From: Candidatus Bilamarchaeaceae archaeon
GTDB taxonomy: Archaea > Micrarchaeota > Micrarchaeia > Anstonellales > Bilamarchaeaceae
Length of the DNA: 64,000 bases
Assembly: GCA_038870635.1 (NCBI GenBank)
Contig: JAVZJR010000003.1
Span: 4,880 to 68,879 of the forward strand
Direction of reading: 5' to 3'
This document shows, in pieces, positions 20,758 to 55,309 of this stretch. A program made the position numbers and the translations under genes. The notes below the pieces were generated by a model, which had not been told where the DNA came from, searched no databases, and saw nothing but the letters and a program-made list of their open reading frames with translations. Numbering within the stretch: position 1 is the first letter of the stretch; every line of letters starts with the position of its first letter.

Positions 20758-23123
20758 AAAAAATAATATTTTTGTTTTTTTTGTTAACAGTATTTTTTGC
20801 TACTGAAAACTCTATTAGAATTCATTACCACAGCCAATATGAAACATCAGATGTTATTACAAATCAGAAATTTGTCGCAGATTTAAAAGAATGCACAATA
20901 ACTGGAAAGGTTATAGAAGGTGATCCATGCAAAGCAGGCATTTCAAAAGTATGTAAAAACACCGTTATTACATATACGCCTCGGATTGTTGGGTTGTGGG
21001 GAGATAACAACAACTATATTACAACAACTTTGCCAAATTGTTTTTGCAAAGCACCAGCGGGCTCTGGTCTTCCAGATAGACCATCATACTGTGATCCAAA
21101 CACAAAAACATGTTCATGTACTGTGGAGGGGTATACTCTTTATTGTCCTGAGAATTACTTAGTTGATTACAACACTGATAATAGAGTACTAATTGCTTGG
21201 TTACCAGAAAGCATTTATAATAAATATGATGTAGAGCATCATGGTTATGCTGAGCAAACAATTTGGTCAGGTTATGCAGCTGGAAAACAAATACTCCAAC
21301 TTTATAAAGAACTTGGACCAAATAATTATCACGCACAAACAATAGATAGATACGATGCAACTTTCACTACATATTATAACAAAAAAGGATATGCAGCAGT
21401 ATTTTGCAAAGGAAAGTATGAAATGAAAGAAGGAAATAATATAATAAGAAGCGGAGAGATGCCAATCCAAGAAGGTCTACCCCAAAGAATTTTGATTTTA
21501 AACAATGTTGGGACAACAGCGACATTTAGTTCAAAACTTTATGGTCTTGATTGTTTTGCTTCTGTTATAAGGCATCCAAAAGATGATGACTACCTTTATG
21601 GTTTTGAAATACAATTTAATGGTTATAAAGTACCACCAATTTCTAATGTAGAAGACATTCACCAAATTGAAGTTGTCGATATAAAATCATCTATGGAGAT
21701 TATAAGCACAGAAGTAATAGCAAAAGATGGAAGCGGCAATTATTTACTTAAAACAATTGTAAAAAACACAGGTGATGTAAGAATAAAGATAAATGAAACA
21801 AAAGCAGATTATTTACCAAATTCAGGAGCAACACCAATGGATAGACAACTATGTAATTTAATCTTCGGACCAAATCCACCAGCAGAATGCAATTATCCAA
21901 ATGGATATAATTCATATTTTAATCCTGGTGAAGAAAAAACGCTTTATACATTATACCTTTATCAAGGAGAATCCAAAGAACTCTGCGATGTTTCAATTAT
22001 GAGATTAAGTTATACATCCGACCAACCAACTTGCTCGCAATATGATAAATGGTGGGCAGCGGTTAATGGACCGTGTATAACCGAACCTATAAAATATCCG
22101 CCAAAATGCGAGGTAAAACCAAAAGAGAATACCATTAATCCTCTTGAGATTCACGAATGGACGGTTAGTTGTTTTGATGAGAATAATAAAGCAGTAGCGT
22201 GTGTAGGTAATAATTGGAGATGGGAAGGAATAAAAGGTGATTTCGTAACAAAAACAAATGAAAAAGCATTAGCGTATTCAACTGCAACTAGTAAAGTAAG
22301 TGGTAAAATAGTTTATAGACAAGGTGAAATAAATTGCAGTGCAAATGTAACAGTTGATCCGCGCTCTCTTCCACAATTTGTTTGTATGCTTGAGCCATCA
22401 TCTGCAGAAATGGTTGTTAATGAAACTAAAAATTTTGACTTAAAATGTATATTTAGAGACGAAAGCGGCTCTTCAAAAGAAACAAAGCCTCAAAAAGCAG
22501 ATTATGCAGCAGTCGAAGGGCTCATAGGAAAAGTCGAGCCATATCCACGCGATCCAACAAGTGGTGTAACCTTTAATGCAACTGACGTAAGCGCAGGAAA
22601 ACTTAGAGGAATAGGTTATTACACAACACCTTTGGACCCAACATTAAGAGGAGCGATTGCCTTTTCATCAATAAATGTTGGTGCTGGTGAATTACAATGC
22701 GGTGAAAACGAGACGCTGGTTTGCCACCTTGAAGAGATAGAACTTCCATTCGGAGGCAGTACATTTATAGTTATATGCGAATGTGTGCCAAAAGAAGATA
22801 ACGAGGAAGAAGACAAGTCAAATATGGAGTGCGTTATAAGCCCACCAAATCAAAGGATATCACCATTACAACCTGGATTAGCAACTGTGAGTTGCTATGA
22901 TAAGCAAACTTGGAGCAGGGTAGAATGTGGCAGCGATATAACCTGGTCAATAAATGAGAACCTAGCGACATTCAAAGATAATACTTATGGAAAAACAAAT
23001 GTTGTATTCAATGCAAAACCAGGCGCTACTGGCGAGGGGTTCTTAAACGCCAAAGTAGGCGATAATGTAAGATGCGAGGCCAAATTCCTCGTTTCTCCAT
23101 ACACATGCTTAGAAATCAGCTAA
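20754..23123 (+). CDS. secreted Cys-rich ORFan (789 aa) with a CARDB-like segment and three Cys-framed Ig-like modules
   Basis: Signal-like N-terminus 'MKKIIFLFFLLTVFFA'; SD AGGAGGT; 'TIVKNTGDVRIKI' CARDB-like segment; three repeated modules of about 90 aa at aa 451-781. Confidence 0.8.
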   Translation: MKKIIFLFFLLTVFFATENSIRIHYHSQYETSDVITNQKFVADLKECTITGKVIEGDPCKAGISKVCKNTVITYTPRIVGLWGDNNNYITTTLPNCFCKAPAGSGLPDRPSYCDPNTKTCSCTVEGYTLYCPENYLVDYNTDNRVLIAWLPESIYNKYDVEHHGYAEQTIWSGYAAGKQILQLYKELGPNNYHAQTIDRYDATFTTYYNKKGYAAVFCKGKYEMKEGNNIIRSGEMPIQEGLPQRILILNNVGTTATFSSKLYGLDCFASVIRHPKDDDYLYGFEIQFNGYKVPPISNVEDIHQIEVVDIKSSMEIISTEVIAKDGSGNYLLKTIVKNTGDVRIKINETKADYLPNSGATPMDRQLCNLIFGPNPPAECNYPNGYNSYFNPGEEKTLYTLYLYQGESKELCDVSIMRLSYTSDQPTCSQYDKWWAAVNGPCITEPIKYPPKCEVKPKENTINPLEIHEWTVSCFDENNKAVACVGNNWRWEGIKGDFVTKTNEKALAYSTATSKVSGKIVYRQGEINCSANVTVDPRSLPQFVCMLEPSSAEMVVNETKNFDLKCIFRDESGSSKETKPQKADYAAVEGLIGKVEPYPRDPTSGVTFNATDVSAGKLRGIGYYTTPLDPTLRGAIAFSSINVGAGELQCGENETLVCHLEEIELPFGGSTFIVICECVPKEDNEEEDKSNMECVISPPNQRISPLQPGLATVSCYDKQTWSRVECGSDITWSINENLATFKDNTYGKTNVVFNAKPGATGEGFLNAKVGDNVRCEAKFLVSPYTCLEIS

Positions 23124-23140: not shown

Positions 23141-23161
23141 AAAAAACATCATAGTTTGGGT

Positions 23162-23345
23162 GAGCGTAAGCCTTTGCCCTTGTAATACAGAAGTCAAAGG
23201 CTTCGTAAGAAGCCAAGAAAACAGGAGAAAACATAAAACGGCTGCGGTGGCCGATGAAAACATAAGTCCACCGCACATAGAAAACAGAAAGTATAACAGA
23301 GAAAACAGTAAGAAGCCAAGAAAACAGTAAGAATACCTAAAAACG
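23162..23345. repeat. conserved GC-stemmed noncoding element, copy 1 (candidate ncRNA)
   Basis: Near-identical to 44352-44580 apart from one indel; stems 23168-76/23195-203 and 23243-50/23268-75; six GAAAACA heptamers. Confidence 0.8.
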
Positions 23346-23390
23346 AAAACTATTTATTTATAATTATTGTTATCTTAGCAGGGTGGTCTT

Positions 23391-30007: not shown

Positions 30008-30101
30008 ATAACATAATTTTTATTTATTTTTCCTTATTTTTCAACCCAGGTTTAGAAAGCTTACCGTTCTGTTTAAAAAATCTGTGTTAGTAAATATAAT
30101 T

Positions 30102-30722
30102 ATGAGTTTTATACTAAAAAGAAAGGGAAAAAATAAAGACCGCACAGAAGATGTATTTTCTAAAAAAGAAGTTATCGACGAAAAGTTAAGAAAAATTCAG
30201 ATAACTTATCTTACAGAAAAATTCGCAATGTATAGGAATAATATAGAATCTGCTAAAATGGATTTAGAAGAATACGAAAAACTAAAAGACAATTCTCTTA
30301 AAGACTTAACGCAACAACTAAAGGATGCGATAAAAGAATGGGAAAAAAGATTAAATGAAACAAAAGAAAAATTAGCTTCGATAGTTGAAAGTGAAAGTGA
30401 AATAGATAAGATAATTGAAAAAACAAAACAAAAAATAAAAACGCGCAATTTTATAGAAAACGCTAAAAAAATAATAAAAGCAAGCGTGTTCACGTTCATA
30501 ACAACACTCGTGATTGTAAATCTTATAGGAGTTCCCATTAATGAAGCTATAAAAAATCCTATGTTATTTTATCCAACTTTTATTGTGGCATCTTTGTTAA
30601 GTGCGTTCTATATAATAAGTCCAAAAAGAAAAGAATTTTTGCAAGCGATAAATGAAAAAGTCAAAAAAGATGAATTAGACATAAAAGAAAGAGTGCAAAA
30701 AAATGCCGCGGGTCGGATTTGA
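30102..30722 (+). CDS. hypothetical coiled-coil protein with C-terminal TM helices
   Basis: K/E-rich heptads followed by 'VFTFITTLVIVNLIGV' and 'FYPTFIVASLLSAFYII'; the last 19 nt overlap tRNA-Phe on the opposite strand. Confidence 0.55.
   Translation: MSFILKRKGKNKDRTEDVFSKKEVIDEKLRKIQITYLTEKFAMYRNNIESAKMDLEEYEKLKDNSLKDLTQQLKDAIKEWEKRLNETKEKLASIVESESEIDKIIEKTKQKIKTRNFIENAKKIIKASVFTFITTLVIVNLIGVPINEAIKNPMLFYPTFIVASLLSAFYIISPKRKEFLQAINEKVKKDELDIKERVQKNAAGRI
30697..30703 (-). terminator. T7 run immediately after tRNA-Phe
   Basis: A7 on the plus strand is T7 on the minus strand, directly after the discriminator base; no encoded CCA. Confidence 0.5.
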
Positions 30723-34124: not shown

Positions 34125-35828
34125 ATGGCAAGGCAGACTGAGCTAAAAAGCAACGAAATCCTCCAACAAGTGCCCCAAAAAAATATTACGGCAAGAATTT
34201 TAGACACACATAAAAAACATAATCAAATGATAAAAAAAATAGAACAAAGGCTCGACTATTTAAAAGAAAAATATGGTATAAAAGAAGAATTGGGATTATA
34301 CTTATTGGGTTTTTTAGCAGGCGCAATGGATGGTAAAAACTATCTAAAAATTGTGCCTTTAATCTTTTCAAATGGAAAAGCAATGCAAGTCTCTGAAATT
34401 TTAAAAGATAAAAACATAGTATTTGCCATAGATGACTTAAAAAAATTAGTAAAAAACAAAGAAGAGATTTACAATTTTTACAATGAACTAGAAAAACTAG
34501 ATTCAAAAGATTTAAGCAAAGAAAAATTGTGGGAGGCGTATATAAAATCATACGAAAGGAAGTATATACTAGAATATGTTAGTGGATTATGGGAAAAAAG
34601 TTACACAGAAGGAAAGTACGAAATCATTCCAGAAGAAAAGAAAAAAATACCTGAATTAAGAGAAGAACTTATAGAATTGCCGCCAACAACAACTGACCTC
34701 TATATTTATGGCTCTAGACCGATATATTTTGACAGTCAGACGGGTATAAGCGGGACAAAAGAACAGATTAAATTAGTTCGAGAAGCAGAAATTAAAAAAG
34801 AGATAGTGGGCAATGACGAAATGCTTCTCTATCTTCTTCCGTTGATAGGAACGGGTTATGCTCTTGTAAAAGATTTAAGAATAATAAAAGAAGGAAGCGA
34901 ACAAGAGCTAATTAAAATAGGTAAATTAAGAATCTCAGAAAAAGATATAGGCAAAGGAATGCTTGTGCTTGACCTGTTGTTTGGATGGTGGGACGCAAGT
35001 TTCGTTATCCATTTAGGAGCAAAAAGCGCTGTTAAAACAGCAGCACGGGAAATTGAAAATGTAACAAAAAGTGGGAGGGCGATTGCGGTAAGTGAAATAA
35101 ACAAAAAAGTCTTATTAAAAGCAGCAGAAGAATTGGACAATAACGAAATGAAAAAGTTCATAGAGATATTAGGACGAAACCCAAAGTTAGGAGAGGAAAT
35201 AGTAGCTAAAGCAGGAGGTGTAAACAACATAACAAAGGAAATACTTAAGGAATATATCAACAAAGAAAAAACAAAAATTAGCACAGTAAAAGAAACAGCA
35301 CTTTTACTTTCTGAAAGAAAATTTAGAGAGTATGCACCTCTCGTCCTTTTCAAGGAAATGGCAGAAAGAACAGAATTAGAATCATTAAGATATCTTGGAC
35401 AAATGGCAAAAGGTTTAGATGAAAGAGAAAGAAAAATTGTGCTTAAGGCAATATTCGCTACACTAACAACATTTGACAAAAACGCTCAGAAATCCCTTGC
35501 GAATTACGTAAAGAAAAATGGTTGGAAAGGAATAATAGAAAAAATAGAAATGAAAAAAGATGTCGTAAGGGCACTACAGGAATTGTTTCCAGAATATAAA
35601 GATGCTTATAAATATGCACCTTTGGAGGACATAGTAAAAACAGCGCGAGACCTAGGCGCATTGCACGCGGTATTTGTGTTTGTGCAGTTAATTGGCAGTT
35701 ATATAAGCACAAAAGAAGAAGAAAAGCTAAACGAGATTGAATTTATGCAAGGATTAAAGGAACTATCGTATAAAGAAAAGAACAAGGGGTTATTAGATTT
35801 ATTTATGAAAAGTTATGAAAATAAATAA
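34125..35828 (+). CDS. ORFan protein (567 aa), first gene of giant-ORFan operon 2
   Basis: Long ORF; TATA-like 'tttttaaatg' about 25 nt upstream of the ATG, so possibly leaderless; hydrophobic segments 'LLYLLPLIGTGYALV' and 'MLVLDLLFGWWDASFVI'. Confidence 0.75.
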   Translation: MARQTELKSNEILQQVPQKNITARILDTHKKHNQMIKKIEQRLDYLKEKYGIKEELGLYLLGFLAGAMDGKNYLKIVPLIFSNGKAMQVSEILKDKNIVFAIDDLKKLVKNKEEIYNFYNELEKLDSKDLSKEKLWEAYIKSYERKYILEYVSGLWEKSYTEGKYEIIPEEKKKIPELREELIELPPTTTDLYIYGSRPIYFDSQTGISGTKEQIKLVREAEIKKEIVGNDEMLLYLLPLIGTGYALVKDLRIIKEGSEQELIKIGKLRISEKDIGKGMLVLDLLFGWWDASFVIHLGAKSAVKTAAREIENVTKSGRAIAVSEINKKVLLKAAEELDNNEMKKFIEILGRNPKLGEEIVAKAGGVNNITKEILKEYINKEKTKISTVKETALLLSERKFREYAPLVLFKEMAERTELESLRYLGQMAKGLDERERKIVLKAIFATLTTFDKNAQKSLANYVKKNGWKGIIEKIEMKKDVVRALQELFPEYKDAYKYAPLEDIVKTARDLGALHAVFVFVQLIGSYISTKEEEKLNEIEFMQGLKELSYKEKNKGLLDLFMKSYENK

Positions 35829-35878
35829 AAAATGTTTATAACAGAGATATGTTGGTGATGTTTATGGTTGGTGGTACT

Positions 35879-38395
35879 ATGGTACAAGAAACGTCTGAAA
35901 AAAATCCTCAAGAAAAGAGTGGAATGGACCGTATTAAAAAAGGAGTGCAAAAAATTTTACCACAAAAAAAAGGAAAGAGTATGCCTCATCATCTTGGTGC
36001 TCTGATGGAGGAAAACGATTATATTAAAAGAGCTTTAAAAAAATTTGAGGATACATATAAAAAATTGCCGCAAACAGAAGCAAAAGAATTACTAAACAAA
36101 ATTTACGAAGAATACAAAGAAGCTCTTGAAAGAAACGACAAAGAACAGATAACAATTCTCTATGACATTTTGCAAAAACTTCAAGCAAAAAGAGACGACG
36201 TAAATGTAATAAAGATGAGCCCTATTTTAAAAACAAAAGCAATGAAACAAGAATTAAATGCTGATGATGTGATAAGAATAATAAGCATCGATTTAAAAAA
36301 TAACGAAAATAAATTAATGAGTTGGTTAAAAAATCTAAAGTTAGATATGGCAGAACAAGCTGCACTTTTAGTTGAACTAGAAAAAAGAGGACTAATAAAA
36401 AGAGATATTATTTTCCAAACGTTTGAGCGGTTAAGCGGAACAGTAGATGAAGAGATAATCAATAGAATAATAAATGGGCAAACAGCAGTAGATGCTATCG
36501 CAAATAGTATACCATCACACCTCAGAGAAACATATAAAAAATATCAAAGCAATACTTTATCTGAAACTATAAAAAATATAGATAACAGGATAGATGAAAT
36601 AAAAGATCAAATTAAAAGAAAGCTTTATGTAGACCAAGCTTTAGATGACGAACTAAAAACTTTAAATGAATTAAAAAATGAAGTGAAAAAGTTTATTGAA
36701 GGGGGAACCGAGGCTCTTGAGATTTTAGGGAAAAGAATAAGCACTATAGCAGAAGAAGAATTAAGAATAAGCCAAGAGCTAGCTTACCTAAACCGACCGT
36801 TTTCATTTAACCTAGGTATATTTAAAAAACCAATTATTTTTGGTTTGTGGGCAGGCGGGCTTTATGGTATTTATGAATTAGCAGAAACACCGTGGGCTTC
36901 AGTAACAGCATTTATTTTCGGAATAGGAACGTACTCAACATACAAAAAAGCCAAAGAAGTTGAAGGCCTACGGGCTAGAATAAGAAGAACAGGACCAATA
37001 GCGATTTTATGGGCAACTCTTACTGGAGTTTCTGGTTACTTAACTTACGAAGCTCTGCAAAAAAAAGAGAATGAATTACAAAACGAACTTATGAAAGAAT
37101 ACAAGCTTTCAAGAGAAGAAATAAAAAGATTGGGTGATTTCGCAAAATCAAAAGAAGGAAAAGCAGTGATTAATTATCTAAAAGATTTAAGAGGTAAAAT
37201 GGTGCGAGAAGGAGAGAGATTAGATTTCAACAAATTAGAAGAATGGCTCAAAGACGAAAAAACTATTGGTTCATTCAAAAATCTTGAATATTTCATTAAA
37301 GCCCTGCTTGAAATTGCTCCTCTTGTGAAAAATAAAAATGAAGATGAGATAAAAAGAATAATAAATCAAAAAATAGATGAATTTAAACAAAAAGGTTATC
37401 TCTACAATAAAGGAGAAAGTGTGCTTTTTGAATATGGGTTAGCGATTGGCTTATCTGAACAACAAATAGAAAAATTACTATCTTCTGCTGAAAATAAAAA
37501 AGAAATTGTTGAACTTTTAAAAGCAGTTTATGAAGGTAGATTACCGCAAAGCTATGCAATGATATATGCTGAGTTTATACTGCAAGGCAAAAAAGAAGAA
37601 GCAGAAAAACTTCTCCTTCAACAACCAATACAAAAAAACTCAGCACTCGATCACTTGGACAGGTACACATTGGATATATTGATGGATCCTAATAAAGACA
37701 TAAAAGAAAAACAAAATGCAAAAAGGAGATTAGACGAAATAATTAAGTGGTATAATACAAACGAGACGTACAGAAACAATTTAAACCAATCTCTGGGTGA
37801 AAACGTAATTTATGGTGATGATAAATATGGATGCATAAGTGCTATTATGAGAGGTGACATAACTATAGAACAAATTGCTAATGGTGAAAAATTAGAAGTA
37901 GGATATATAATAGCGAACCCTTTATTAGCAATGATTGACAAGAGATTCATAAGCGATGCGCGAGCAGCAAATTTTGTTAACGAATATGGTTTGCTAGAAT
38001 TTATTAAAGGCTATATAAAAGAGAATAAAATCGGCATTGATGCCTATGGCTTAGTAAAAGAATTAGAAAATGATAAAACCTTTAGAGCTATAGATAAAAA
38101 TAAAAGAAAAGAGTGGTTAAAGGAAAATCTTGAAAAAGGATTGCTAAAGAAATATCTAAAAACTAAAAATTTGGAAAGAACATATATGGCAAACGGAATA
38201 GAAACTGCTCCCCCTACCATAATAGAAAAAAAAGAGGGGAAAAGGGCACCTCCAAGCAAAAGAGCACCTCCAAGCAATACTCCTTCACAAGTAATACCAA
38301 GGAAAACAGAAAGGCCGCAACAACCATCAGGGCGTAAAAAAGTAGGAAAAGAGGAAGAAGGAGGGGGAAAAAAAGAAGAGGAGATAAGTTGGTAA
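35879..38395 (+). CDS. ORFan membrane protein (about 838 aa) with three central TM helices and a basic Pro-rich tail
   Basis: SD GGTGG before ATG 35879 (the track starts at 35849); TM block 'PIIFGLWAGGLYGIY..WASVTAFIFGIG..GPIAILWATLTGVSGYL'; tail 'KRAPPSKRAPPSNTPSQ'. Confidence 0.75.
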   Translation: MVQETSEKNPQEKSGMDRIKKGVQKILPQKKGKSMPHHLGALMEENDYIKRALKKFEDTYKKLPQTEAKELLNKIYEEYKEALERNDKEQITILYDILQKLQAKRDDVNVIKMSPILKTKAMKQELNADDVIRIISIDLKNNENKLMSWLKNLKLDMAEQAALLVELEKRGLIKRDIIFQTFERLSGTVDEEIINRIINGQTAVDAIANSIPSHLRETYKKYQSNTLSETIKNIDNRIDEIKDQIKRKLYVDQALDDELKTLNELKNEVKKFIEGGTEALEILGKRISTIAEEELRISQELAYLNRPFSFNLGIFKKPIIFGLWAGGLYGIYELAETPWASVTAFIFGIGTYSTYKKAKEVEGLRARIRRTGPIAILWATLTGVSGYLTYEALQKKENELQNELMKEYKLSREEIKRLGDFAKSKEGKAVINYLKDLRGKMVREGERLDFNKLEEWLKDEKTIGSFKNLEYFIKALLEIAPLVKNKNEDEIKRIINQKIDEFKQKGYLYNKGESVLFEYGLAIGLSEQQIEKLLSSAENKKEIVELLKAVYEGRLPQSYAMIYAEFILQGKKEEAEKLLLQQPIQKNSALDHLDRYTLDILMDPNKDIKEKQNAKRRLDEIIKWYNTNETYRNNLNQSLGENVIYGDDKYGCISAIMRGDITIEQIANGEKLEVGYIIANPLLAMIDKRFISDARAANFVNEYGLLEFIKGYIKENKIGIDAYGLVKELENDKTFRAIDKNKRKEWLKENLEKGLLKKYLKTKNLERTYMANGIETAPPTIIEKKEGKRAPPSKRAPPSNTPSQVIPRKTERPQQPSGRKKVGKEEEGGGKKEEEISW
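38240..38275 (+). repeat. 2 x 18-nt in-frame tandem duplication (KRAPPS KRAPPS), one mismatch
   Basis: 'aaaagggcacctccaagc' followed by 'aaaagagcacctccaagc'. Confidence 0.9.
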
Positions 38396-38416
38396 AATAA
38401 TGAGGTGAGATGTTAA

Positions 38417-39007
38417 ATGGTTGTAGCAAAAGTTGCACCAAAAGAAAAAAAAGAAGAGACAGTAGACGAAATAATAGATAATTTTATAAAAATAGAAAGA
38501 GGAAAAGATGTAATTAGTTATTTCATTGGAAAAGAGGAAAAAATAAAATCCAATAAAGAAAAATTTATAGATAAATTGTACAACCGATTAGAAAAATATA
38601 TGCTTTCGGATGAAAAGAAAAGAGAAATCGTAAAAAAGAACAAAAAACAGATTATTCAAACTCTTAACAAGGATAAGTATTATACCAAATTGAAAGACTA
38701 TTTTCCAACCGAAGACGATGCTTTTGATTTTTATGTAGATAATGTTAAAAATATAGATGCGCTTTACAATAAAATAAAACTTAAGATTGACACTAAAGAA
38801 AAATTAGAAAGAATAAAGGAATTTTTAACTAATGAAGCACAAAAAGACGAACGAATAAAATCTGAATTAAGCGATTATGTCAAAATAAATTTTGAAAAGG
38901 CACGATACTCTGTTTTTGGGGCGATGCTTTATTTGCGAGCTAAAGAAAACCCAAAAAGTGAGCCGTGTGAAGAATCATTAATAAAAAAAGATGAGTTTAC
39001 ATTTTAG
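38417..39007 (+). CDS. ORFan protein (196 aa), Lys-rich
   Basis: SD GAGGTGA 8 nt upstream; 21-nt gap from the upstream gene. Confidence 0.65.
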   Translation: MVVAKVAPKEKKEETVDEIIDNFIKIERGKDVISYFIGKEEKIKSNKEKFIDKLYNRLEKYMLSDEKKREIVKKNKKQIIQTLNKDKYYTKLKDYFPTEDDAFDFYVDNVKNIDALYNKIKLKIDTKEKLERIKEFLTNEAQKDERIKSELSDYVKINFEKARYSVFGAMLYLRAKENPKSEPCEESLIKKDEFTF

Positions 39008-39068
39008 GATTGAAACCAAAAAACACCATCCAACAGGATTTTAAAATAGTTACTATAAATTATAAATT

Positions 39069-42000
39069 ATGGCTGATGGAAAAAAAACAATCAGCTTACG
39101 CTATAAAATAATTTCCAATATATTACTTGTTAGTTTATCAACTACAACTTTTTTCTCTCAGCCTAACTTTAAAAATCCTTTTAGGCTAAATGATGTTATG
39201 GCAGAGGGATATCGTGTCTCTAAACAACCACAGGAGATAGACATAAATAAAAAGATAGAAGAAATAACAAAGATAAACAATGAGAAAAAGAAAAACCAGA
39301 ATATAGAAGAATTGATAAATTATATTAATAAAAATAATAAAAATTTAAATAACTTTTTATCAACCTTCAAACAAACAACACTTAAAGCAATGGATGATCC
39401 TCAAGAATATCAAAAATTCCTTATCTATGTGCAAATAATAAATAAAATAGAACTACACAAAAATGAAAATTTCATTAGCATAGTAAAAGAAATAATAGAA
39501 AAAATTAAAGAGGAAAAAAAAGATATTTGGGAAGCTTATGATAAATATCTGAAGGATAAGGGTGAAAAACCAAAACTGACAACATTAATCAAAATAATAA
39601 ATGATATAAAAACAGGGGAAGATTCTTATCCGAACTATCTTAAAGAGGCCGTACTTGGGGGAAAAAAGGGAACACAGGAAATACCACCATCATTGATAAT
39701 ACCGACTCCAATCAAAAAGATTGATAAAGAAGATATAGAAAGCACATTAAAATTTGCAGAAAAAAGAATAGAATATGCTAAAGAAACCATACAACAACTT
39801 AAAGAAATGGCTAACGAAATAAAAAATAATGAAGAAAAAAAGAAGGTAGACGAAATTATTGCAAAATGGGAAGAAAAAATAGAAAATTATGAGAAGATCA
39901 TAAAAGAGAGTAAAGAAGCTTTCTATAAAACTTCTTATGAAAAAGAAGATGCGACGAAAATAAAAAACATAACAAAGATTGCAACAGAAATTGAAGAATT
40001 TATTAAAAATGAATTAGTTCATTCGAGCGACATAAGAATAACAAAACAATTTGCTTATCACCTTATAGGAGCAATGACCACCGGTACAGAAGGGGACTAC
40101 ACAGAAGTACAAAAACTTAAAGCTATTCTTGAAAACACGAAAACGATAGCACCAAAAAAATATGAATTTTGTATAATGCTTATTAAATCATTCGTGCAAG
40201 AGGTCTCACCGGATGTCTACAAAGCATTAGAAAGCATTAATTCTGAGAGAGCACTCAATATAGCGATAGCAGCAGTATTAACTGCAAATGATAGAGAATT
40301 ACAAAAAATAAAAGAACAATATGGCAATGATTTTGTATCTTATGTTTTAGGAAATAGAGAAAAAATAAATGAAAAAGAAATAAGAGAAGAAGCGAAAAAA
40401 AGGATAAACATTGACTTTGAAACTCCAATTACACAATCGCTTGCTTTGCTCGACGCAGTGAGAATTCTTAGAAATCGACTTACTTATATTCTAACATCAA
40501 CTGATTCATTAGAGAGTATGCAAAAAAACATCTCAAATTGGATGGAGAATTATAAAAAAATAGCAGGCAATGATCTTGCCTTACTCAACTTATTTTATGA
40601 TATCGATAAAATAGCCGAAACTGCGGGACTAAAAAAACCAACCAACACAGAGGAAGCAAAAAAACTATTTTTAGAGATTTTTAATTACCTCAATCAGAAC
40701 CAACAACAAACAAATATAGCTTCTGCTGATGCGATAACAAAATTTTATCTTTTAAAAGTAAGAGAGCTAGCAACCAAATACAATCTAGACGCAAAAGCAG
40801 TAGAAGCGATGGATATATCGATAATCGCCTTGGAAAAAATAGATCGTAAATTAATACCTGCTTTTTATGAGGATGTAGTTGTAGTATTAGCAAAAACACT
40901 AGAAGGTAGATCTGCTGAGTTCTCAGAATCATTACTAACTTTTAGCGGTCTTCTTCAAGCTCGCTATCCCACTGAAAGAGCAAATCTGTCATTTTTAGTT
41001 TTGGATGTAGAAGAAAAATTCAAAAAGGTATTTATATGGTTTAAAGAGAATATACCACAAGCAACAGCGAAAATGACTCATTATGAACTTATGGAAGAAA
41101 CAAGAGAAAGAAGTGAACTAACAGAATACGAAGTTTACCCCCCCTATAACTTATATGGATTAAAAGAATCAATATGGCAAAGACCATCTGCGGTCTATTT
41201 TCAGGATGTATTTTATAGATATGGAATTGATTATCTTCCAAATCCTCAAATTCCTTACCCTGCTACAATGCCTTATGGCCCATTGACAATAAACACAGAT
41301 GCAGAAGGACTTCACCTAAAATTAGACAACCAACTTAATCCATTCATTCCTACATTTGGAAGACCAACCTTAAGCGGAGATTTTAGGATTACTGCAGTTT
41401 CAAGAGCAGTCATGCTTGCAACAATAAGAAAAGCATTCGGTCAAATATCTATGTATTCTCCATATGAATTAATAGCGGCATATGGTGAAAGCGCAGGGTA
41501 TTATAGATGGGAAGAAAAAAAAGGAGGAAAAATAACTGAAACGATGGGGGCAGGCGGCCTCAGAGGTAAATATGAAGAAAGGCATCCTGCTGGTGGTTTA
41601 GCTGCACAAATAGTAGGTGAAAAAAGCACAACAACAAGAGAAGAAGGTGGTGGCACTGAGGAAATCAAAACAACAATTGGAAAAACAGATTTGTATGGAA
41701 CATTAACTGGCGGCGGTGTTGGATCCATAGTCACCGTGGCGGATAATTTAAGATTCACAGAAGAAGAAAGACCGAATAGCAAAAATGCTGCTATGAAAGC
41801 TACCATCAATCAATTAAGCGCATTATCACAAGAAAATGGACAAAGTTTGCTTGTTTATTTCCCTGATATTGAGACAGAGGAAAAAATAGTAAAAGATGAA
41901 AAAGGCGTGGAAAAAACAGAAAGTAAAAAAATAATGGGTGGGAAGGTCTACTATATTAATCCTCATGGTGATGTTTATCAGTTAGCACTTGGCCATAATG

Positions 42001-44294
42001 AGTTTGATGCTTTTAAGCAGTTCCTTTATGGAAGCATGGAAAAAGAAAACGTGCTCGCTAGCATGCGAAAATATGGCCAATGGGGTAAAACCGATATTGA
42101 AAATTTAGGTGGAGCGATTGGTTTTACTATTGGACCTATCGCTACGTTTGCCATGGAAGATGCAATTAGAAGGATAGGCGCGACAACCACAACAAAATAT
42201 GACGAAACTGTAGGGAGAAATGTAAGTGTTGTTGATTTCACAAAACTTGAAGCAGTTGGGTATAGCGGTGTTCCGCTTGCAATGGCATTTAATACATTAG
42301 AAAATGGGACTTTTGCTTTTATAACCAGATTCTCAACGCCTGTAGAAACAGTGACTAAAGAAAGTACATCAAAAACAGGACCAGCATATGAAAAAGGCAT
42401 CTATAACTTAGAAATGATAATAAGGAATATACAGCCACAAAGAGAATATGAAGTAAGAGTAATGGGAGGCTGGCCTGGAGATTTTGGTGTGCTTTATAAA
42501 ATAGGTAAAAAGGAGGGAGAGAAGGAAACGCGATGGCTTGCTAAAGCATCTACATCTACTTATATTCTTTATTCTGATCTTTTCACCTATGAAAGAGAAG
42601 CACAAACAGTTGCAGAGTATGTTAGAACAACAATGGGCGAATTGTATAATTGGAGCGAAGATAGAAAAACAATGGAAGGACATTTTATTGGTTTTACATT
42701 GATGAATGCTGCAATTTCAGATACTATGGAGAAATATACAAAGCTTTCTGACATGGGATGGGATAATACTTATTTCACAGTCGTGGGATCATATTATGCT
42801 AAAAAGTTTGGTATGTTCGGTGGTTTAGAAAGAACACCAGGATATGGTAATCAAATAAATCAATTAACACTGCTAATAGAACAACGAAGACAAGAGATGT
42901 TGCAATATCCTGAGAGGGCTGAAGAAATAGCAAAATCATTGGATGAAGAGATAAAGAGGATGAGGAATACCAAGTTTTGGAAACCAGTTGTTGGTATGCA
43001 ATGGGACCCAGAAACATTCCAAGTCAGACTTATAGGAAAAGCAGAAATAGCAGAGTACAAGGAGAAAGGTATCGACCTTGGCTATTCATTATTTGGCGGA
43101 AACTTTTTTGTTGGACATAAGAAAGGAATGCAACCTTACTTTGAATTATCAGCTAATACTCTGAGGTATAACCAAAATGCCTATCTTGATTTATTATTTG
43201 CTTTGGGAGCTGCAAAAGTAAACTGGAAACCTTCAAGCACATTTACATTTTATACAAGTGAGAAAGATAATTTAGAAGGCATTATGAAGTGGTTGAAAAA
43301 CAACAAAAAAGAATATTTAACTGCGTTGTTCACAAAATACTATAAACTCGATCAAAATCTCGAAAAAATAGAAAATTATAAAGTAGAGATGGCCAAACAT
43401 CTCAAAGAAGAAGGAGGGGCAAAAGTATATTATATTCTTTTTGACCAAGCTAGAGAGATAATTTTTATAGGAAATGAAAAAGATAGAGAGAGTTGGATTG
43501 ATAAATTCCTTGAAGAAGGTAAAGATTTCTTTGTGCTCCATGCAGAAAAAGAAAAAGATGGGACGAAAATAACAATAGAAACAGCAAATGTCAACGAAAG
43601 CAAAATTATGCCAAGAATGAAGTTAATAGGCAGCGTCCCGCTTAAAATGTATGAAAAAGAAACAGAAAGGGTTGGAGGAGTGGGAGCACTTTTGGCCGAT
43701 GTATTCACTAACTACAAACAACAATGGCTTATGGCGTTAGTGGCAGGAAAAAGAATATTTGAAAATGAAGATTGGTCACAGTATAGTTTTGTTGTTTCAA
43801 CAAAATGGAACAATGTTAATCTTGCCAACATTCAAGATAAAATGTATGGCTACGTTGTGATAAATCACATAACAAAAGAAATCAGTGTTATTACACCTGA
43901 AGAAATGAAAGAAGAGATAAAGAGGACAACTGGTGCGACAGGAATAACTTGGGCGCGGTTTGATGGTATTCTAGGTGAAACAGCAAAGCTAAACTTTTAT
44001 CTTGAGGCAGGTGTTGAAGAATATACAACATCTATCCAAAAAATAGGTGAAGCATCAAAATATTATAATGAGAAACTGATAGGTAGGTTAGGATTAAGTT
44101 ATGATTGGAAACAACAACTATACGGATACCCAGCATGGCTAACAATAGGAATAGTCGGATACGTTGGTTATTGGCCTCTTTTAGGCGTACCTACAAATAT
44201 AACTGATATAAGAACGCTAATGCAACAACCATTCTATGGCGCTCCTAATTATGATACAAGAGGAGTTATGTTCTATATTGGTGGAAGTTTCTAA
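39069..44294 (+). CDS. giant ORFan envelope protein (1741 aa): signal-like N-terminus, coiled coil, helical region, Pro-rich linker, beta-rich C-terminus
   Basis: 5.2-kb uninterrupted ORF; 'IISNILLVSLSTTTFF' h-region; ends 'RGVMFYIGGSF'. Confidence 0.8.
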   Translation: MADGKKTISLRYKIISNILLVSLSTTTFFSQPNFKNPFRLNDVMAEGYRVSKQPQEIDINKKIEEITKINNEKKKNQNIEELINYINKNNKNLNNFLSTFKQTTLKAMDDPQEYQKFLIYVQIINKIELHKNENFISIVKEIIEKIKEEKKDIWEAYDKYLKDKGEKPKLTTLIKIINDIKTGEDSYPNYLKEAVLGGKKGTQEIPPSLIIPTPIKKIDKEDIESTLKFAEKRIEYAKETIQQLKEMANEIKNNEEKKKVDEIIAKWEEKIENYEKIIKESKEAFYKTSYEKEDATKIKNITKIATEIEEFIKNELVHSSDIRITKQFAYHLIGAMTTGTEGDYTEVQKLKAILENTKTIAPKKYEFCIMLIKSFVQEVSPDVYKALESINSERALNIAIAAVLTANDRELQKIKEQYGNDFVSYVLGNREKINEKEIREEAKKRINIDFETPITQSLALLDAVRILRNRLTYILTSTDSLESMQKNISNWMENYKKIAGNDLALLNLFYDIDKIAETAGLKKPTNTEEAKKLFLEIFNYLNQNQQQTNIASADAITKFYLLKVRELATKYNLDAKAVEAMDISIIALEKIDRKLIPAFYEDVVVVLAKTLEGRSAEFSESLLTFSGLLQARYPTERANLSFLVLDVEEKFKKVFIWFKENIPQATAKMTHYELMEETRERSELTEYEVYPPYNLYGLKESIWQRPSAVYFQDVFYRYGIDYLPNPQIPYPATMPYGPLTINTDAEGLHLKLDNQLNPFIPTFGRPTLSGDFRITAVSRAVMLATIRKAFGQISMYSPYELIAAYGESAGYYRWEEKKGGKITETMGAGGLRGKYEERHPAGGLAAQIVGEKSTTTREEGGGTEEIKTTIGKTDLYGTLTGGGVGSIVTVADNLRFTEEERPNSKNAAMKATINQLSALSQENGQSLLVYFPDIETEEKIVKDEKGVEKTESKKIMGGKVYYINPHGDVYQLALGHNEFDAFKQFLYGSMEKENVLASMRKYGQWGKTDIENLGGAIGFTIGPIATFAMEDAIRRIGATTTTKYDETVGRNVSVVDFTKLEAVGYSGVPLAMAFNTLENGTFAFITRFSTPVETVTKESTSKTGPAYEKGIYNLEMIIRNIQPQREYEVRVMGGWPGDFGVLYKIGKKEGEKETRWLAKASTSTYILYSDLFTYEREAQTVAEYVRTTMGELYNWSEDRKTMEGHFIGFTLMNAAISDTMEKYTKLSDMGWDNTYFTVVGSYYAKKFGMFGGLERTPGYGNQINQLTLLIEQRRQEMLQYPERAEEIAKSLDEEIKRMRNTKFWKPVVGMQWDPETFQVRLIGKAEIAEYKEKGIDLGYSLFGGNFFVGHKKGMQPYFELSANTLRYNQNAYLDLLFALGAAKVNWKPSSTFTFYTSEKDNLEGIMKWLKNNKKEYLTALFTKYYKLDQNLEKIENYKVEMAKHLKEEGGAKVYYILFDQAREIIFIGNEKDRESWIDKFLEEGKDFFVLHAEKEKDGTKITIETANVNESKIMPRMKLIGSVPLKMYEKETERVGGVGALLADVFTNYKQQWLMALVAGKRIFENEDWSQYSFVVSTKWNNVNLANIQDKMYGYVVINHITKEISVITPEEMKEEIKRTTGATGITWARFDGILGETAKLNFYLEAGVEEYTTSIQKIGEASKYYNEKLIGRLGLSYDWKQQLYGYPAWLTIGIVGYVGYWPLLGVPTNITDIRTLMQQPFYGAPNYDTRGVMFYIGGSF

Positions 44295-44351
44295 TTATGG
44301 AGCAAAGTTTTCAGATAAATTAGTAGTATAGTTAAAAACCAGTTTTAAAAC

Positions 44352-44580
44352 GAGCGTAAGCCTTTGCCATCGATAGCTATGCTATCGAGCTGTAAACGTA
44401 TAGACGTTTACACAAGGAGATGATAGAAGTCAAAGGCTTCGTAAGAAGCAAAGAAAATAGGAGAAAACATAAAACGGCTGCGGTGGCCGATGAAAACATA
44501 AGTCCACCGCACATAGAAAACATTAGAAATACAGAGAAAACAGTAAGAAGCAATGAAAACAGTAAGAATAACTAAAAACG
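44352..44580. repeat. conserved GC-stemmed noncoding element, copy 2 (with a net ~46-nt two-hairpin expansion)
   Basis: Aligns with 23162-23345; extra perfect hairpins CGATAGC/GCTATCG (44371-87) and GTAAACG/CGTTTAC (44392-411) lie inside the stem-A loop; abuts the tRNA-Arg 3' end. Confidence 0.8.
44574..44578 (-). terminator. T5 run after tRNA-Arg
   Basis: A5 on the plus strand directly after the discriminator base; it lies inside repeat copy 2. Confidence 0.4.
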
Positions 44581-44678
44581 GGCCTGGCAGGATTTGAACC
44601 CACAACCGCCTGGTCACTCCTACAATCAGGAGAGTGCATCCGAAGCCAGGCGCTCTATCCAAGTTGAGCTACAGGCCC
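44579..44678 (-). tRNA. tRNA-Arg(UCG) with a 25-nt intron at position 37/38
   Basis: Minus-strand read GGGCCTG-TA-GCTC..GAGC-G-CCTGG-CTTCGG[intron]A-CCAGG-CGGTT-GTGGG-TTCAAAT-CCTGC-CAGGCCC-G; the T-stem needs two G-U pairs. Confidence 0.8.
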
Positions 44679-52296: not shown

Positions 52297-53901
52297 CTAA
52301 AAATTTACAAAGGTAAAAACTAACATGCTTGCAAAAGAGAGCAACACGAAGTAGACCGCACCTCTTGACTTTCTTCCTTCAATATCTGCGACATAAAGAG
52401 AAGCGATTAAAGCATAAATAATTAAATACGCAGGTATAAGCGAAGTTATAAAGTTTAATTTTGCTGTGGCTATTGTGCTATTCTCAATTATGAAGGTCGC
52501 TATACTGCCAATGAGTGAAAGAGAGATTTTCAATATAAATGGTATTATCAAACCACCGAATAAGATGGTGTACTTTTGCATTGACATCAAAGCCGCTCTT
52601 TCCCTTTTTATTTCAAAGTTTTTTAGTATATCCTCAGCGATGAAGTGTAGCTGTTCAACAGAATTAGTGTCGTAAGCATGTTTTATCATCATACAAACTT
52701 TTTTTAGAGCAGGCGATTCATTTCTTTTCCAAAAATCTTCAAGCACCTTATCAGTGTTTATGTTTGTGTTTAACTGCCTTTTAGCTATGATTGCCTCTTC
52801 TGAAAGTGCTTTGTAACCACCAGACGCCATAACTTCAAATATTTTCTCAATCTTTGCTGATTTTGGTAATGCAGCGATAGAAAAAAGAGCATCAGGTAAA
52901 TACTGTTCTATTTCCTCTATTCTCTTTTCTTTTTTATAGTCTTTGTATATGCTCGCCCCCATGATGATAAGACCTAATAAAACACCAACCACATTTATAA
53001 TAGAGTCGTTGAGTAAGGATGAAATTATAAAAAGTCCGGCGCCTATTATAAGACCTACTGGTGGCGCGGATTTTTTTGGCATTAAAGGACTGTAAGGAAC
53101 CATACTTTTGCTGAGCAAGAGAAGGGCTGCGCTTATCGCGGGAAAAACTATTAACAAAGCCAAAGCAATAGTGAGATCATCAAGAAAACTGCCACCGCTA
53201 TAATTCCCCACAAGCACATATATTATAAAGAAAGTGGGGAGTATAGCAGTAGTCATTATAAAAAGCATTCCAAAAATAGCATTTTTAGAAGCGCTTTCTC
53301 TTAACTCATGCTGCTGGACAGCTAAGAGTTCATCGCCTATTCTTTTCATCTCAGTTCCTGAACTTCCTACTTCATACGCTGAGAGTATTTGAGCAAGTGC
53401 TCTTTTTATAGAATAAGATGAGAAAAGAGTGGCAAATCTTGAAAAAGATTTTTCAAGTGTAATCCCACGATTAACATCATTTATTATTTTTTTTATTTCT
53501 TCAGCCATTTCACTTTCTTCTTCAGCAGCCATCGCCAAGCATCTTATAAACGGTATTTTCATATTTCTGAGCATTCCAATAGTTCTTAATAGAAAAGGCA
53601 TTTCAGCTTCCATTTTTTTTGTTTTTGTTTTTAACTCGAAGGAAGGCAATGAGATTAGAAAAAGAAAGATTATCAATCCACTAAAAATAGAATAGGTAAG
53701 AGCATCTGTTAATTCATTAGATGCTGCGAGCAGCAACAATAGGATTAAGATAAAAAAAATAATTGAAACTGTAAGTGAAAGGGTAAAGTATTTGCCTGTT
53801 TTTGTTTGAGGGTAAAGCTTCTCTAAAGGTTCAAGTAATTTGCTTTTTACTTCTATTTCAGGAAAGTTTTGCGAAAGTTCAGCGAGATTTTTTAGTAGCA
53901 T
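52297..53901 (-). CDS. FlaJ/TadC-like (T2SS-F family) polytopic platform protein
   Basis: 534 aa; two cytoplasmic helical domains alternating with TM blocks; overlaps the upstream ATPase gene by 23 nt. Confidence 0.7.
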   Translation of the reverse strand: MLLKNLAELSQNFPEIEVKSKLLEPLEKLYPQTKTGKYFTLSLTVSIIFFILILLLLLAASNELTDALTYSIFSGLIIFLFLISLPSFELKTKTKKMEAEMPFLLRTIGMLRNMKIPFIRCLAMAAEEESEMAEEIKKIINDVNRGITLEKSFSRFATLFSSYSIKRALAQILSAYEVGSSGTEMKRIGDELLAVQQHELRESASKNAIFGMLFIMTTAILPTFFIIYVLVGNYSGGSFLDDLTIALALLIVFPAISAALLLLSKSMVPYSPLMPKKSAPPVGLIIGAGLFIISSLLNDSIINVVGVLLGLIIMGASIYKDYKKEKRIEEIEQYLPDALFSIAALPKSAKIEKIFEVMASGGYKALSEEAIIAKRQLNTNINTDKVLEDFWKRNESPALKKVCMMIKHAYDTNSVEQLHFIAEDILKNFEIKRERAALMSMQKYTILFGGLIIPFILKISLSLIGSIATFIIENSTIATAKLNFITSLIPAYLIIYALIASLYVADIEGRKSRGAVYFVLLSFASMLVFTFVNF

Positions 53902-55309
53902 TTTTAGACCTCTTTTCTTTTATATCTGTGGCATTTTCACTAAAACTATACATCTTTTGTTGGAAGTCTTTGTAAAAGTTCACAAATTCAAGTGGGGCTT
54001 TTTCTATTATTTTAGTCCTCAATTTCCATTCTTCAGTAAGCTCTTTACTGCTCATGTTGAAGCTCGTTGCGATTTTCTCAAAGAGTTTACTGCTTTTTTT
54101 GAATCTTAATTTTTTACTTTTGCTATCAATCACAAAAATTGTATTTATGTTTTTTCCTACTTCTGCTATCTCAGTCATTTTTCTTATTTCAACATTCTTC
54201 CTTTTTTTCTTATCGTAAACGAGCATCCTACGTTGGATTACTAAACAATCTATAGCTTCTATATCATTTTCATTTATTCCGAAGGTTTTAATTCTCTGAA
54301 CCGCTTCATACGCACCCTGCGCGTGTATGGTCGCATAGCTTCCTCTCGCTTGGCCAGCGAGTAAAACATCAAAAAGTGCTTCAAATTCTATTTTATTTCT
54401 CACTTCGCCTACTATCATCCTATCCGGTCTCATTCTCAATGTATCGTACATCAAGTCCTTTAAACTTATATTCATATCTCTATTTGCAACTAGTCGCAAT
54501 TGGTGCTCGTGCGGGATGTTAATTTCTGGTGTTTCCTCTGCTATTATCACGCGCTCGTTCCCAGGTACAAAAGAGAATAATGCGTTTAGCAAGGTTGTTT
54601 TTCCGCTTCCTGTGTTGCCACCTATAACGACTGAGCTATCGCTTTGCATTACAAGCGAGAGAAATGCCAGTGCTTCCGTTGTTGTTGAACCAAGTGTAGC
54701 GAGTTCTTTTGGCGAGAATGGTCTTGATCTAAATTTTCTTATGGTTATTTCCCCTGCGGATATTGGCGGCAATGATGCATGAAGACGACTCCCATCGGGA
54801 AGCATTGCGTCTAATCTTGGATTTTGAAGTGTGATATGCCTACCTAAACCCATTGCCATCTTATTAACAACATCTCCTATTGCTTTTTCACTTGTGAAAC
54901 AAGCATTAACCATTTTCCATCCTTGATTTTTTACGTATACATAAGCAGGTTTGTTTATCCCAATCACACTTATCTCTTCTATATTTGGGTCTTTTAACAA
55001 ATTTTCTATGAATGCAAAACCATAAACGTGCAGATAAGCGAATTCTGTAAGGTACTCCATCTGGTCTGTGTCTAATACTATTCCATTTTCTTCTGCAATT
55101 ACTGTTAAAAGGTTTTTTATAAAATCTTTACTTTCCTCAGGTGTGCTAATATCTTTTGCGCGTACTGCTTCCCTGAATCTCTCCTCAATATTAAATATCA
55201 TCTGTTCTTCCTCTTGACTAAGACGGGGAAGAGGAAGTTTGTACTCACCCTCACTCAATATTTTCCAACCTAGCATTAAATTTCTATAGGAAGTAAGATT
55301 TTTTAACAT
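53879..55309 (-). CDS. FlaI/VirB11-type type IV filament assembly ATPase
   Basis: Walker A 'GGNTGSGKTTLLNAL', Walker B 'RVIIAEETPE', 'RMRPDRMIVGEVR', 'GSYATIHA'. Confidence 0.85.
   Translation of the reverse strand: MLKNLTSYRNLMLGWKILSEGEYKLPLPRLSQEEEQMIFNIEERFREAVRAKDISTPEESKDFIKNLLTVIAEENGIVLDTDQMEYLTEFAYLHVYGFAFIENLLKDPNIEEISVIGINKPAYVYVKNQGWKMVNACFTSEKAIGDVVNKMAMGLGRHITLQNPRLDAMLPDGSRLHASLPPISAGEITIRKFRSRPFSPKELATLGSTTTEALAFLSLVMQSDSSVVIGGNTGSGKTTLLNALFSFVPGNERVIIAEETPEINIPHEHQLRLVANRDMNISLKDLMYDTLRMRPDRMIVGEVRNKIEFEALFDVLLAGQARGSYATIHAQGAYEAVQRIKTFGINENDIEAIDCLVIQRRMLVYDKKKRKNVEIRKMTEIAEVGKNINTIFVIDSKSKKLRFKKSSKLFEKIATSFNMSSKELTEEWKLRTKIIEKAPLEFVNFYKDFQQKMYSFSENATDIKEKRSKNATKKSR

Follow-up and report, generated by a model that had tools for sequence, protein, structure and literature searches.

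What might a run of four genes for large proteins without recognizable domains, the last of them 1,741 amino acids (aa) long, do for a micrarchaeon? The genes in question, here called A, B, C, and D and jointly operon 2, lie on the forward (+) strand at positions 34125-44294 of a 64-kb stretch of DNA (64,000 nucleotides of contig JAVZJR010000003.1, assembly GCA_038870635.1, Candidatus Bilamarchaeaceae archaeon), which is termed the window in the following. An original prediction made from the letters of the sequence had described them as giant ORFans, i.e., open reading frames (ORFs) without relatives, that are architecturally parallel to a second group of genes within the window, operon 1. 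Our analysis leads to a different picture: A-B-C-D is a conserved four-gene module in several Micrarchaeota lineages, and D is predicted to be an exported protein whose C-terminal domain resembles, with moderate confidence, the barrels of bacterial outer membranes. To our knowledge, host attachment and exchange of DPANN archaea are largely unknown at the molecular level, and we know of no symbiont-encoded envelope machine identified in Micrarchaeota.

A four-gene module of Micrarchaeota

Known-domain searches agreed with the expectation that the proteins hold no recognizable domains. Neither the four proteins of operon 2 nor the three of operon 1 gave a match at threshold in Pfam, PHROGs, NCBIfam, or PADLOC. 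Sequence profile searches against the PDB were empty as well, with no relative for the D family profile and no matches for the family profiles of A and B. Furthermore, none of 19 full-length D-family members contained a Pfam domain (no outer-membrane family, no PF03797, no SLH), and Pfam scans of A and B homologs yielded nothing consistent. A TraI_2_C match of gene A (E 0.0011; 19 bits, with the cutoff at 27) was dismissed as noise because it did not recur in the homologs. Two further candidates were rejected in the course of these scans, namely a defense system (no match in the PADLOC scan) and a phage or viral origin (no PHROG matches and no relatives in viral contigs). A description of the D family was not found in a literature search.

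The ORFan status, in turn, did not hold. An exhaustive phmmer search with residues 690-1741 of D retrieved 31 cluster representatives at E ≤ 0.001, 14 of which were found at E ≤ 1e-30, and homologs of A, B, and C occur in other Micrarchaeota loci. Some short fragments aside, the D-family representatives are 1.3-3.1 kaa (thousand aa) long, and the similarity spans the whole length of the protein. All of the six members carrying a taxon name, to which any statement on taxon restriction is confined, belong to Micrarchaeota or Bilamarchaeaceae; both D-homolog loci from species-representative genomes likewise originate from metagenome-assembled genomes (MAGs) of Micrarchaeota. Word-indexed homolog searches, performed with the whole protein, a 32-sequence alignment, and a 260-aa core alignment, returned only the query or nothing. 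These negatives were false, as exact look-ups place D-family representatives in the same collection, and the search with the 260-aa core alignment failed to recover even the query protein. Word-indexed negatives on K/E-rich (lysine/glutamate-rich) or divergent proteins are consequently not to be trusted.

The surroundings of D were compared in six other loci (L002-L007) from species-representative genomes and metagenomes, which were retrieved by a search with a 6-sequence alignment. ORFs were called and analyzed by BLASTP, then by hidden Markov models (HMMs) built from the first matches. In L003, homologs of A, B, C, and D (620, 952, 411, and 2,117 aa) follow each other in the same order on a single strand, the A homolog being recognized at E 7e-33 and the C homolog by its HMM at E 4e-14, with the B homolog being weak and collinear. 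L004 retains the internal order of operon 2 for A (570 aa, 41% identity, E 1e-115), B (920 aa, E 3e-66), and C (237 aa, E 4.5e-9), which are arranged divergently from D (1,824 aa). The order B-C-D is found in L006 and L007, where B-like and C-like genes stand directly upstream of the giant gene (B homologs at E 2e-11 and 2e-9, respectively). L002 encodes a B-like protein of 698 aa, similar in build to the 838-aa B, followed by C (HMM, E 3.8e-24) and then D, and the sequence of L005 ends too near its giant gene to show the B/A flank. The recurrent arrangement is thus that of a giant D-family gene with neighbors from the C and B families: a C homolog adjoins D in all six other loci, as detected by a family HMM whose seed contained neither L002 nor L003, and B or a B-like protein is present in every locus whose flank is available. 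Since homologs of A, B, and C accompany D in other loci, the four families constitute one conserved module. Among the members with a taxon name, this module appears only in Micrarchaeota. Four "hypothetical proteins" can in this way be replaced by a defined module of four co-conserved families, with a predicted export signal and cleavage site and a barrel-like domain, which can be sought in cultivated Micrarchaeota and in existing proteomes.

The exact operon-2 proteins occur in approximately 10 near-identical MAGs labeled Candidatus Bilamarchaeaceae (Micrarchaeia, DPANN). Hypervariability of D among strains was considered and rejected: the 51 differences over 1,741 residues (~3%) show a mild excess in the N-terminal half only. 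In several of the MAGs, the D gene is cut at differing points (partial proteins P0015-P0021), indicating that assemblies tend to break in or near D, probably due to strain mixtures or to the repeat located downstream of it. In parallel, a 150-aa protein (P0013) equals the last 150 residues of D with three substitutions and opens a contig of 393 kb in five MAGs, one of them being that from which the window was taken.

Two side observations concern the compared loci. A 687-aa protein of L002 (2468-4531, −) is 75% identical to a 680-aa protein of the window (58968-61010, −), which marks L002 as a fairly close relative with a rearranged module. In one lineage, represented by L005 (6763-7572) and L007 (9227-10036), a 269-aa gene with a signal-peptide-like start follows 26 nt after the giant gene; it has no counterpart in the 64-kb window. 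A weak cupredoxin-like match was observed for one unspecified member of the scanned set that included these 269-aa genes.

Within the window, the four genes are arranged as predicted, on the same strand and with short gaps. Gene A (34125-35828, +) encodes 567 aa according to the ORF call. The ORF of gene B opens at 35849 (848 aa); its likely start is, however, M11 at 35879, because a GGTGG Shine-Dalgarno-like motif stands just before this ATG, the family HMM alignment begins at residue 11, and the public annotation has the same start, which gives a protein of 838 aa (35879-38395, +). Gene C (38417-39007, +; 196 aa) is supported by the ORF call and the family HMM, and gene D (39069-44294, +; 1,741 aa) by the ORF call and its family of 31 cluster representatives. 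The intergenic gaps between A, B, C, and D amount to 20 (or 50, depending on the start of B), 21, and 61 nt.

Upstream of gene A, between the thermosome gene and gene A, there is a T-rich stretch with a TATA-like TTTTTTAAAT approximately 25-30 nt before the ATG. GGTGA is found upstream of gene C. The 61-nt gap before gene D contains a TATA-like TTTAAAAT/TATAAAT without a Shine-Dalgarno motif, and on these two grounds D is probably transcribed from a promoter of its own. Taken with the divergent orientation in L004, this promoter-like box suggests two transcription units, which are probably A-B-C and D.

Giant protein D and its partners

Four regions can be distinguished along D. The leader (aa 1-45; 39069-39203, +), defined by a motif recurring across the family, has a basic n-region; its hydrophobic core (IISNILLVSLSTTTFF) measures 16 aa, and the c-region, FKNPF....VMA|E, is conserved. 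In 14 full-length D-family members, leaders of 34-88 residues end in (F)INN.G.N.[AV]MA[EQ]P, and five further genes are called precisely from the M of xMA(E/Q)P onward. These five short starts include at least one mis-call, since the D ORF of L003 continues for 45 codons upstream of the called start and matches the L002 leader. With alanine at −1 and valine or alanine at −3, the context is compatible with a signal-peptidase-I site, and D is predicted to be cleaved after VMA.

The N-terminal arm (aa 46 to ~699; 39204-41165, +), delimited by composition, an alpha-type hydrophobic moment, and the family consensus, is K/E-rich and alpha-prone and carries the family repeat motif L...YG..FV..V. It is followed by a linker rich in proline and aromatic residues (NPQIPYPATMPYGP...; aa ~700-802; 41166-41474, +), which stands out by its composition (Pro 11%, K/E 4%), is partly conserved (P...P..P..LP.G), and was modeled by AlphaFold2 (AF2) with mixed confidence. 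The beta-rich C-terminal domain (aa 803-1741; 41475-44291, +), assigned on the basis of AF2, Foldseek, and conserved alternation, is rich in Gly/Ser/Thr/Tyr and aromatic residues and ends in ...GVMFYIGGSF. Where the C-terminus is intact, the final residue of most D-family sequences is W or F, and hydrophobic-x-hydrophobic-Gly stands before it. The canonical beta-signal of outer-membrane proteins reads G(−5)/Y(−2)/F(0); the motif of D, hydrophobic-x-hydrophobic-G-x-x-W/F with Gly at −3/−4, does not follow this spacing. The operon-2 proteins are nearly free of cysteine.

An AF2 model of the C-terminal 1,052 residues of D, calculated from a 24-sequence alignment, reached a mean predicted local distance difference test score (pLDDT) of 64 and a predicted template modeling score (pTM) of 0.56, with the last ~450 residues at pLDDT 70-95. 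In its secondary structure, one hairpin follows another, interrupted by a few helical inserts, to a total of approximately 40 antiparallel strands that are 13-24 residues long. Comparison with the PDB by Foldseek gave 27 matches at E ≤ 1e-3, and the leading ones were all bacterial outer-membrane barrels: MtrB ranked best (E 3.4e-7, probability 1.0), followed by SlpA of Deinococcus (8ae1_A, E 2e-5, probability 0.99), with PapC/FimD ushers, TbpA, SusC, LptD, BtuB, and EspP (probability 0.93-0.97) among the others. In a viral structure library, the named top matches with non-negligible probability were mostly barrels of the autotransporter, porin, or outer-membrane type. Independently of AF2, an alternation of hydrophobic and polar residues is conserved across the 24 sequences in many predicted strands, covering 7-9 residues in about 10 of them. 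We conclude with moderate confidence that the last ~940 residues of D adopt a very large all-beta meander resembling outer-membrane barrels. This meander may insert into a membrane.

The partner proteins are of a different kind. A lacks a signal peptide and has hydrophobic segments at aa 232-248, 279-295, and 511-527 that are conserved in the homologs. A similar arrangement of three hydrophobic segments, together with a weak HMM match (E 0.02), had raised the idea of a GspF/PilC-type platform protein; it was rejected, with no Pfam T2SSF match for A and a comparison of the A family with the window's own T2SSF protein by hhalign resulting in a probability of 0.3% (E 0.19). B, also without a signal peptide, has long helical K/E-rich flanks, a basic, Pro-rich C-terminal tail, and, grouped in its center, three hydrophobic segments rich in Gly and aromatic residues (~aa 319-394 in the 838-aa numbering), which are conserved in the family and the third of which holds an invariant Trp. 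Three central transmembrane (TM) helices had been predicted for B. The three conserved hydrophobic segments are indeed there, but only one of them exceeds a modest Kyte-Doolittle threshold. These segments support the suggested role of B as a membrane partner of the giant exported protein. C is soluble and K/E-rich, with neither a TM segment nor a signal peptide.

Candidate roles of the module

Our preferred reading, to which we assign a probability of about 0.5, is that the exported D and a membrane platform of A, B, and C form a lineage-specific envelope or host-contact system, the function itself being inferred. D would leave the cytoplasm through Sec and lose its leader behind the conserved V/A-M-A, and its barrel-like C-terminal domain would sit in or against a layer outside the cytoplasmic membrane of the symbiont, either an outer envelope layer or the membrane of the host. 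The helical arm of ~650 residues might then reach back to the cell, where A and B, embedded in the cytoplasmic membrane, and the soluble C would anchor, assemble, or gate D. The likely role would be host attachment or a conduit for host-derived material, and a role in host contact fits a lineage that is generally regarded as host-dependent.

Several points weigh against this reading. We know of no BAM (beta-barrel assembly machinery) or Omp85 machinery in Archaea, and nothing Omp85-like appeared among the genes of the window that were scanned. A cultivated micrarchaeon was reported to have a surface layer (S-layer), not a second membrane (bioRxiv 10.1101/2021.04.28.441871), and for the co-culture of ARM-1, the nanotubes between cells were ascribed to the host and not to the symbiont (PMC11329633). 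The structural evidence has its own weak spots: the AF2 alignment is shallow (24 sequences), residues ~970-1200 stay below pLDDT 50, and the TM-scores (template modeling scores) to every barrel are only 0.1-0.36, which makes closure and strand count of the predicted barrel uncertain. A crude test for beta-type amphipathicity was not significant for aa 1300-1741 (z 0.2) and negative for aa 800-1300, and the first four confident strands (aa 803-883) are rich in G/T/E/K on both faces, unlike membrane-spanning strands. The roles proposed for A, B, and C derive solely from co-occurrence and hydrophobic segments, and a gene A homolog is present in two (L003 and L004) of the three loci having the respective flank.

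A bolder version of the preferred reading takes the ~40 strands as barrels of Micrarchaeota that are truly membrane-inserted: Sec would export them, A, B, and C would aid an assembly that needs no BAM, and the barrels would insert into an outer lipid layer of the symbiont or into the host membrane as a conduit or anchor of the symbiosis. We regard this as speculative and rather improbable. If true, it would give archaea their first native system of transmembrane beta-barrels, challenge the confinement of such barrels to bacteria and organelles, and raise anew the question of the outer layer that early images of these cells show. Even if D formed a surface sheet only, it would represent a new, lineage-defining envelope protein family.

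The alternative that survives best dispenses with the host. SlpA/OmpM tethers are anchored through their N-terminal part, from which a coiled-coil stalk leads to a large barrel at the C-terminus. D could similarly be a structural sheath, canopy, or tether of the envelope that sets a fixed spacing between the cytoplasmic membrane and an outer layer, the membrane anchor being provided by A, B, and C. The second rank of SlpA in the Foldseek comparison is in line with this, and so is the predicted order of parts in D, i.e., a signal peptide, a long K/E-rich helical or coiled-coil arm, and a very large C-terminal beta domain. Moreover, the module is chromosomal and conserved across the lineage of its named members, as would be anticipated for a core envelope part, and the low strain variation (~3%) is not that of a hypervariable protein. 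However, neither an SLH nor any other anchor domain was found by Pfam in D of the window or in the 19 family members, there is no sequence similarity to SlpA/OmpM, SlpA is matched at a TM-score of only 0.2, and three partner genes are dedicated to D, in an archaeon that is not known to have an outer membrane or BAM.

Nor does D belong with the S-layer protein known from Micrarchaeota, as judged by domain models. SLP_Mh of Ca. Micrarchaeum harzensis, a protein of ~101 kDa with S-layer domains of the TIGR01564/TIGR01567 type (bioRxiv 10.1101/2021.04.28.441871), shares with D that it is an exported envelope protein of a micrarchaeon, whose N-terminal signal or anchor is debated (ibid.). However, no operon-2 protein matches any NCBIfam model, so that the TIGR01564/TIGR01567 domains are absent here. 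Membership of D in the S-layer was rejected on the same account: S-layer models of NCBIfam were not found in any of the seven operon-1 and operon-2 proteins, and no S-layer structure is among the top 50 Foldseek matches of D. With an outer membrane of Micrarchaeota being disputed as well (bioRxiv 10.1101/2021.04.28.441871), we consider a purely structural role of D to be possible, yet on the unlikely side.

Other systems resemble D in individual traits. Bacterial outer-membrane barrels such as MtrB, PapC/FimD, LptD, and the TonB-dependent receptors have long antiparallel meander strands, which are predicted for D, and a terminal aromatic residue in common with it; however, no Pfam outer-membrane family is found in the 19 D members, and many of the D strands are far longer and more polar than strands that span a membrane. 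In type V autotransporters, a Sec leader and a large "passenger" make up the N-terminal side, and the C-terminal beta domain has an aromatic residue at its end; EspP is among the matches of D. In contrast, the beta domain of D comprises ~940 aa versus ~300 aa with 12 strands, PF03797 is missing, and the neighboring genes are others. Very large exported proteins have also been reported in Nanohaloarchaeota and other DPANN episymbionts, for which an action at the cell surface is suspected. As far as a comparison by description allows, D resembles them as a very large exported protein of a host-dependent, nano-sized archaeon and differs from them by the absence of recognizable adhesion or enzyme domains and by its conserved set of three partner genes. 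As judged by sequence, D is a member neither of the SlpA/OmpM nor of the autotransporter nor of the micrarchaeal S-layer families.

It might be argued that the barrel is an artifact of the shallow alignment, D being a generic giant secreted adhesin of beta-repeats next to unrelated envelope proteins. The mean pLDDT of 64 with a large part of the model below 50, TM-scores that never exceed 0.36, and the weak outcome of the amphipathicity tests would all be explained. An artifact would hardly account, though, for a C-terminal stretch of ~450 aa at pLDDT 70-95 with hairpins of 13-24 residues, for Foldseek probabilities of 0.99-1.0 with nearly all significant PDB matches being outer-membrane barrels, or for named matches of non-negligible probability in the viral library that mostly belong to the same fold class. 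In addition, neither the conserved dyad pattern nor the terminal aromatic residue depends on AF2, and the tight synteny of the four families is unlikely to be accidental. For these reasons, we hold an artifact to be unlikely.

A membrane barrel is not the only fate of strands that are hydrophobic on one side, as these would suit a groove equally well. The beta domain of D could accordingly be a sheet for lipid binding or transfer, comparable with large lipid transfer proteins or the AsmA/TamB-type groove, and mediate the uptake of host lipids; ApoB-100 (9bde_A, E 6e-4) and lipovitellin (1lsh_A, E 1e-3) are indeed among the Foldseek matches. Their probability is only ~0.2, however, structures of the AsmA, TamB, or VPS13 type are not among the top 50, and the window itself encodes PcrB, a geranylgeranylglyceryl phosphate (GGGP) synthase, which leaves this explanation with a small chance.

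Operon 1, a repeated noncoding element, and neighboring genes

Operon 1 (15816-23123, +), which encodes proteins of 1,154, 488, and 789 aa, served as comparator and is not assigned to the same system. The original prediction had regarded the 1,154-aa protein as a distant paralog of D with the same layout. A coarse likeness exists: the protein has a leader ending in ...VYA|Q, a helical K/E-rich region, a Pro-rich stretch, and beta-prone last 295 aa with a terminal Phe (...NILIKGEVNF), and thereby shares with D the V-x-A leader, K/E helices, Pro-rich part, beta C-terminus, and Phe. A homology signal did not emerge from any of the comparisons. BLASTP aligned only the K/E coiled coil (E 0.001-0.005), the D-family HMM gave E 0.07-8, and the profile comparison by hhalign resulted in a probability of 0.15% (E 0.39), with the 1,154-aa side being a single sequence (effective number of sequences, Neff, 1). 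The local match "LLAAINDRDLE"/"VLTANDRELQ," which had been put forward in favor of paralogy, was unreported by BLASTP at E = 10 and falls into non-conserved columns of the D-family alignment. The likeness of the two giants may reflect convergent architecture or, possibly, very remote homology.

Nor are the operons parallel in architecture. The giant gene comes first in operon 1, followed by the 488-aa protein and then the Cys-rich secreted 789-aa protein, and last in operon 2, after three proteins without signals; the A, B, and C family HMMs match no operon-1 protein. For the last 295 aa of the 1,154-aa protein, a significant beta-type hydrophobic alternation was calculated (z 3.3 versus shuffles), and the AF2 model of this protein without an alignment was uninformative on the fold (pLDDT 35). 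With its outer-membrane-protein-like ending ...GIEYKGENINFNILIKGEVNF, the C-terminus (18393-19280, +) may mark the 1,154-aa protein as another exported protein of this genome that is barrel-like but unrelated to D. Of its two neighbors, the 488-aa protein is free of TM or hydrophobic segments, and the 789-aa protein (20754-23123, +), which has a signal peptide, 31 Cys, and no known domain, is probably disulfide-rich and secreted.

The second argument for linking the loci had been a noncoding element following both operons. Two copies are real (copy 1, 23158-23346, +; copy 2, 44349-44581, +), sharing a 157-nt core of 93-98% identity and a common 5' hairpin arm, and both fold better than shuffled sequences (z approximately −3.9). 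The conservation begins at GAGCGTAAGCC, which pairs with CAAAGGCTTCGT in the hairpin. Copy 2 is composed of a 5' hairpin (GCGTAAGCCTTTG / CAAAGGCTTCGT) with a 46-nt loop insertion representing two extra hairpins, a second hairpin (TGCGGTGG / CCACCGCA), and an A-rich tail, with GAAAACA recurring about six times. Given a TATA-like run ~25 nt upstream of GAGCG in both copies, the element may be an independently transcribed, structured small RNA of 190-230 nt as likely as an element of the 3' untranslated region. No Rfam family was found for copy 2 and none above noise for copy 1. By blastn and a covariance model, the element was detected only twice, both times in the window, and it was absent beside the D homologs in five other loci. 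It was consequently rejected as a conserved companion of the D family and is a recent species-level duplication; not being conserved beside homologs elsewhere, it gives no ancient functional link between the operons, and the proposed connection holds only within this species.

These results bear on the idea that the two operons are diverged paralogous copies of one system, tied together by the downstream element. The V-x-A leader, K/E helical region, Pro-rich stretch, and Phe terminus of both giants, the amphipathicity of the 1,154-aa C-terminus (z 3.3), and the 93-98% identity of the element would be in favor of it. The negative HMM and hhalign comparisons, the unrelated partner genes in a different order, and the absence of the element at the five other loci speak against it, and the single-sequence AF2 model (pLDDT 35) adds nothing on its side. 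We therefore judge common descent of the operons to be very improbable. The notion that the cluster is a virus, plasmid, or integrated element, with the two direct repeats 21.2 kb apart and one of them abutting a tRNA gene as attachment (att) sites, deserves next to no credence: the interval holds GlnA, a proteasome subunit, FttA, RNase P RNA, tRNA-Ser, PcrB, and the thermosome, housekeeping content that effectively refutes an integrated element between the repeats, and there are no PHROG matches, no viral-contig relatives, and no integrase among the genes scanned.

The neighborhood of operon 2 is archaeal and chromosomal, with the thermosome gene directly upstream and the archaeal RNase P RNA, GlnA, and the proteasome subunit nearby; further genes of the window are FttA/aCPSF1, PcrB (GGGP synthase), FtsZ, and tRNA-Ser. 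A tRNA gene of 100 nt (44579-44678, −; Rfam, 52.9 bits), missed by ARAGORN and presumably intron-containing, abuts copy 2 of the element with its 3' end. Adjoining T2SSF and T2SSE genes (52297-55309, −), located 8 kb downstream of operon 2, encode platform and ATPase of a type IV pilus-like system of archaeal kind, for which no link to operon 2 was found. A 212-aa protein (30084-30722, +) was also matched weakly by the D-family HMM (E 0.001-0.01), which is spurious and due to a K/E-rich stretch; its weak EMC3/TMCO1-like matches (E 0.006) suggest that it is possibly an archaeal insertase of the Oxa1/YidC type.

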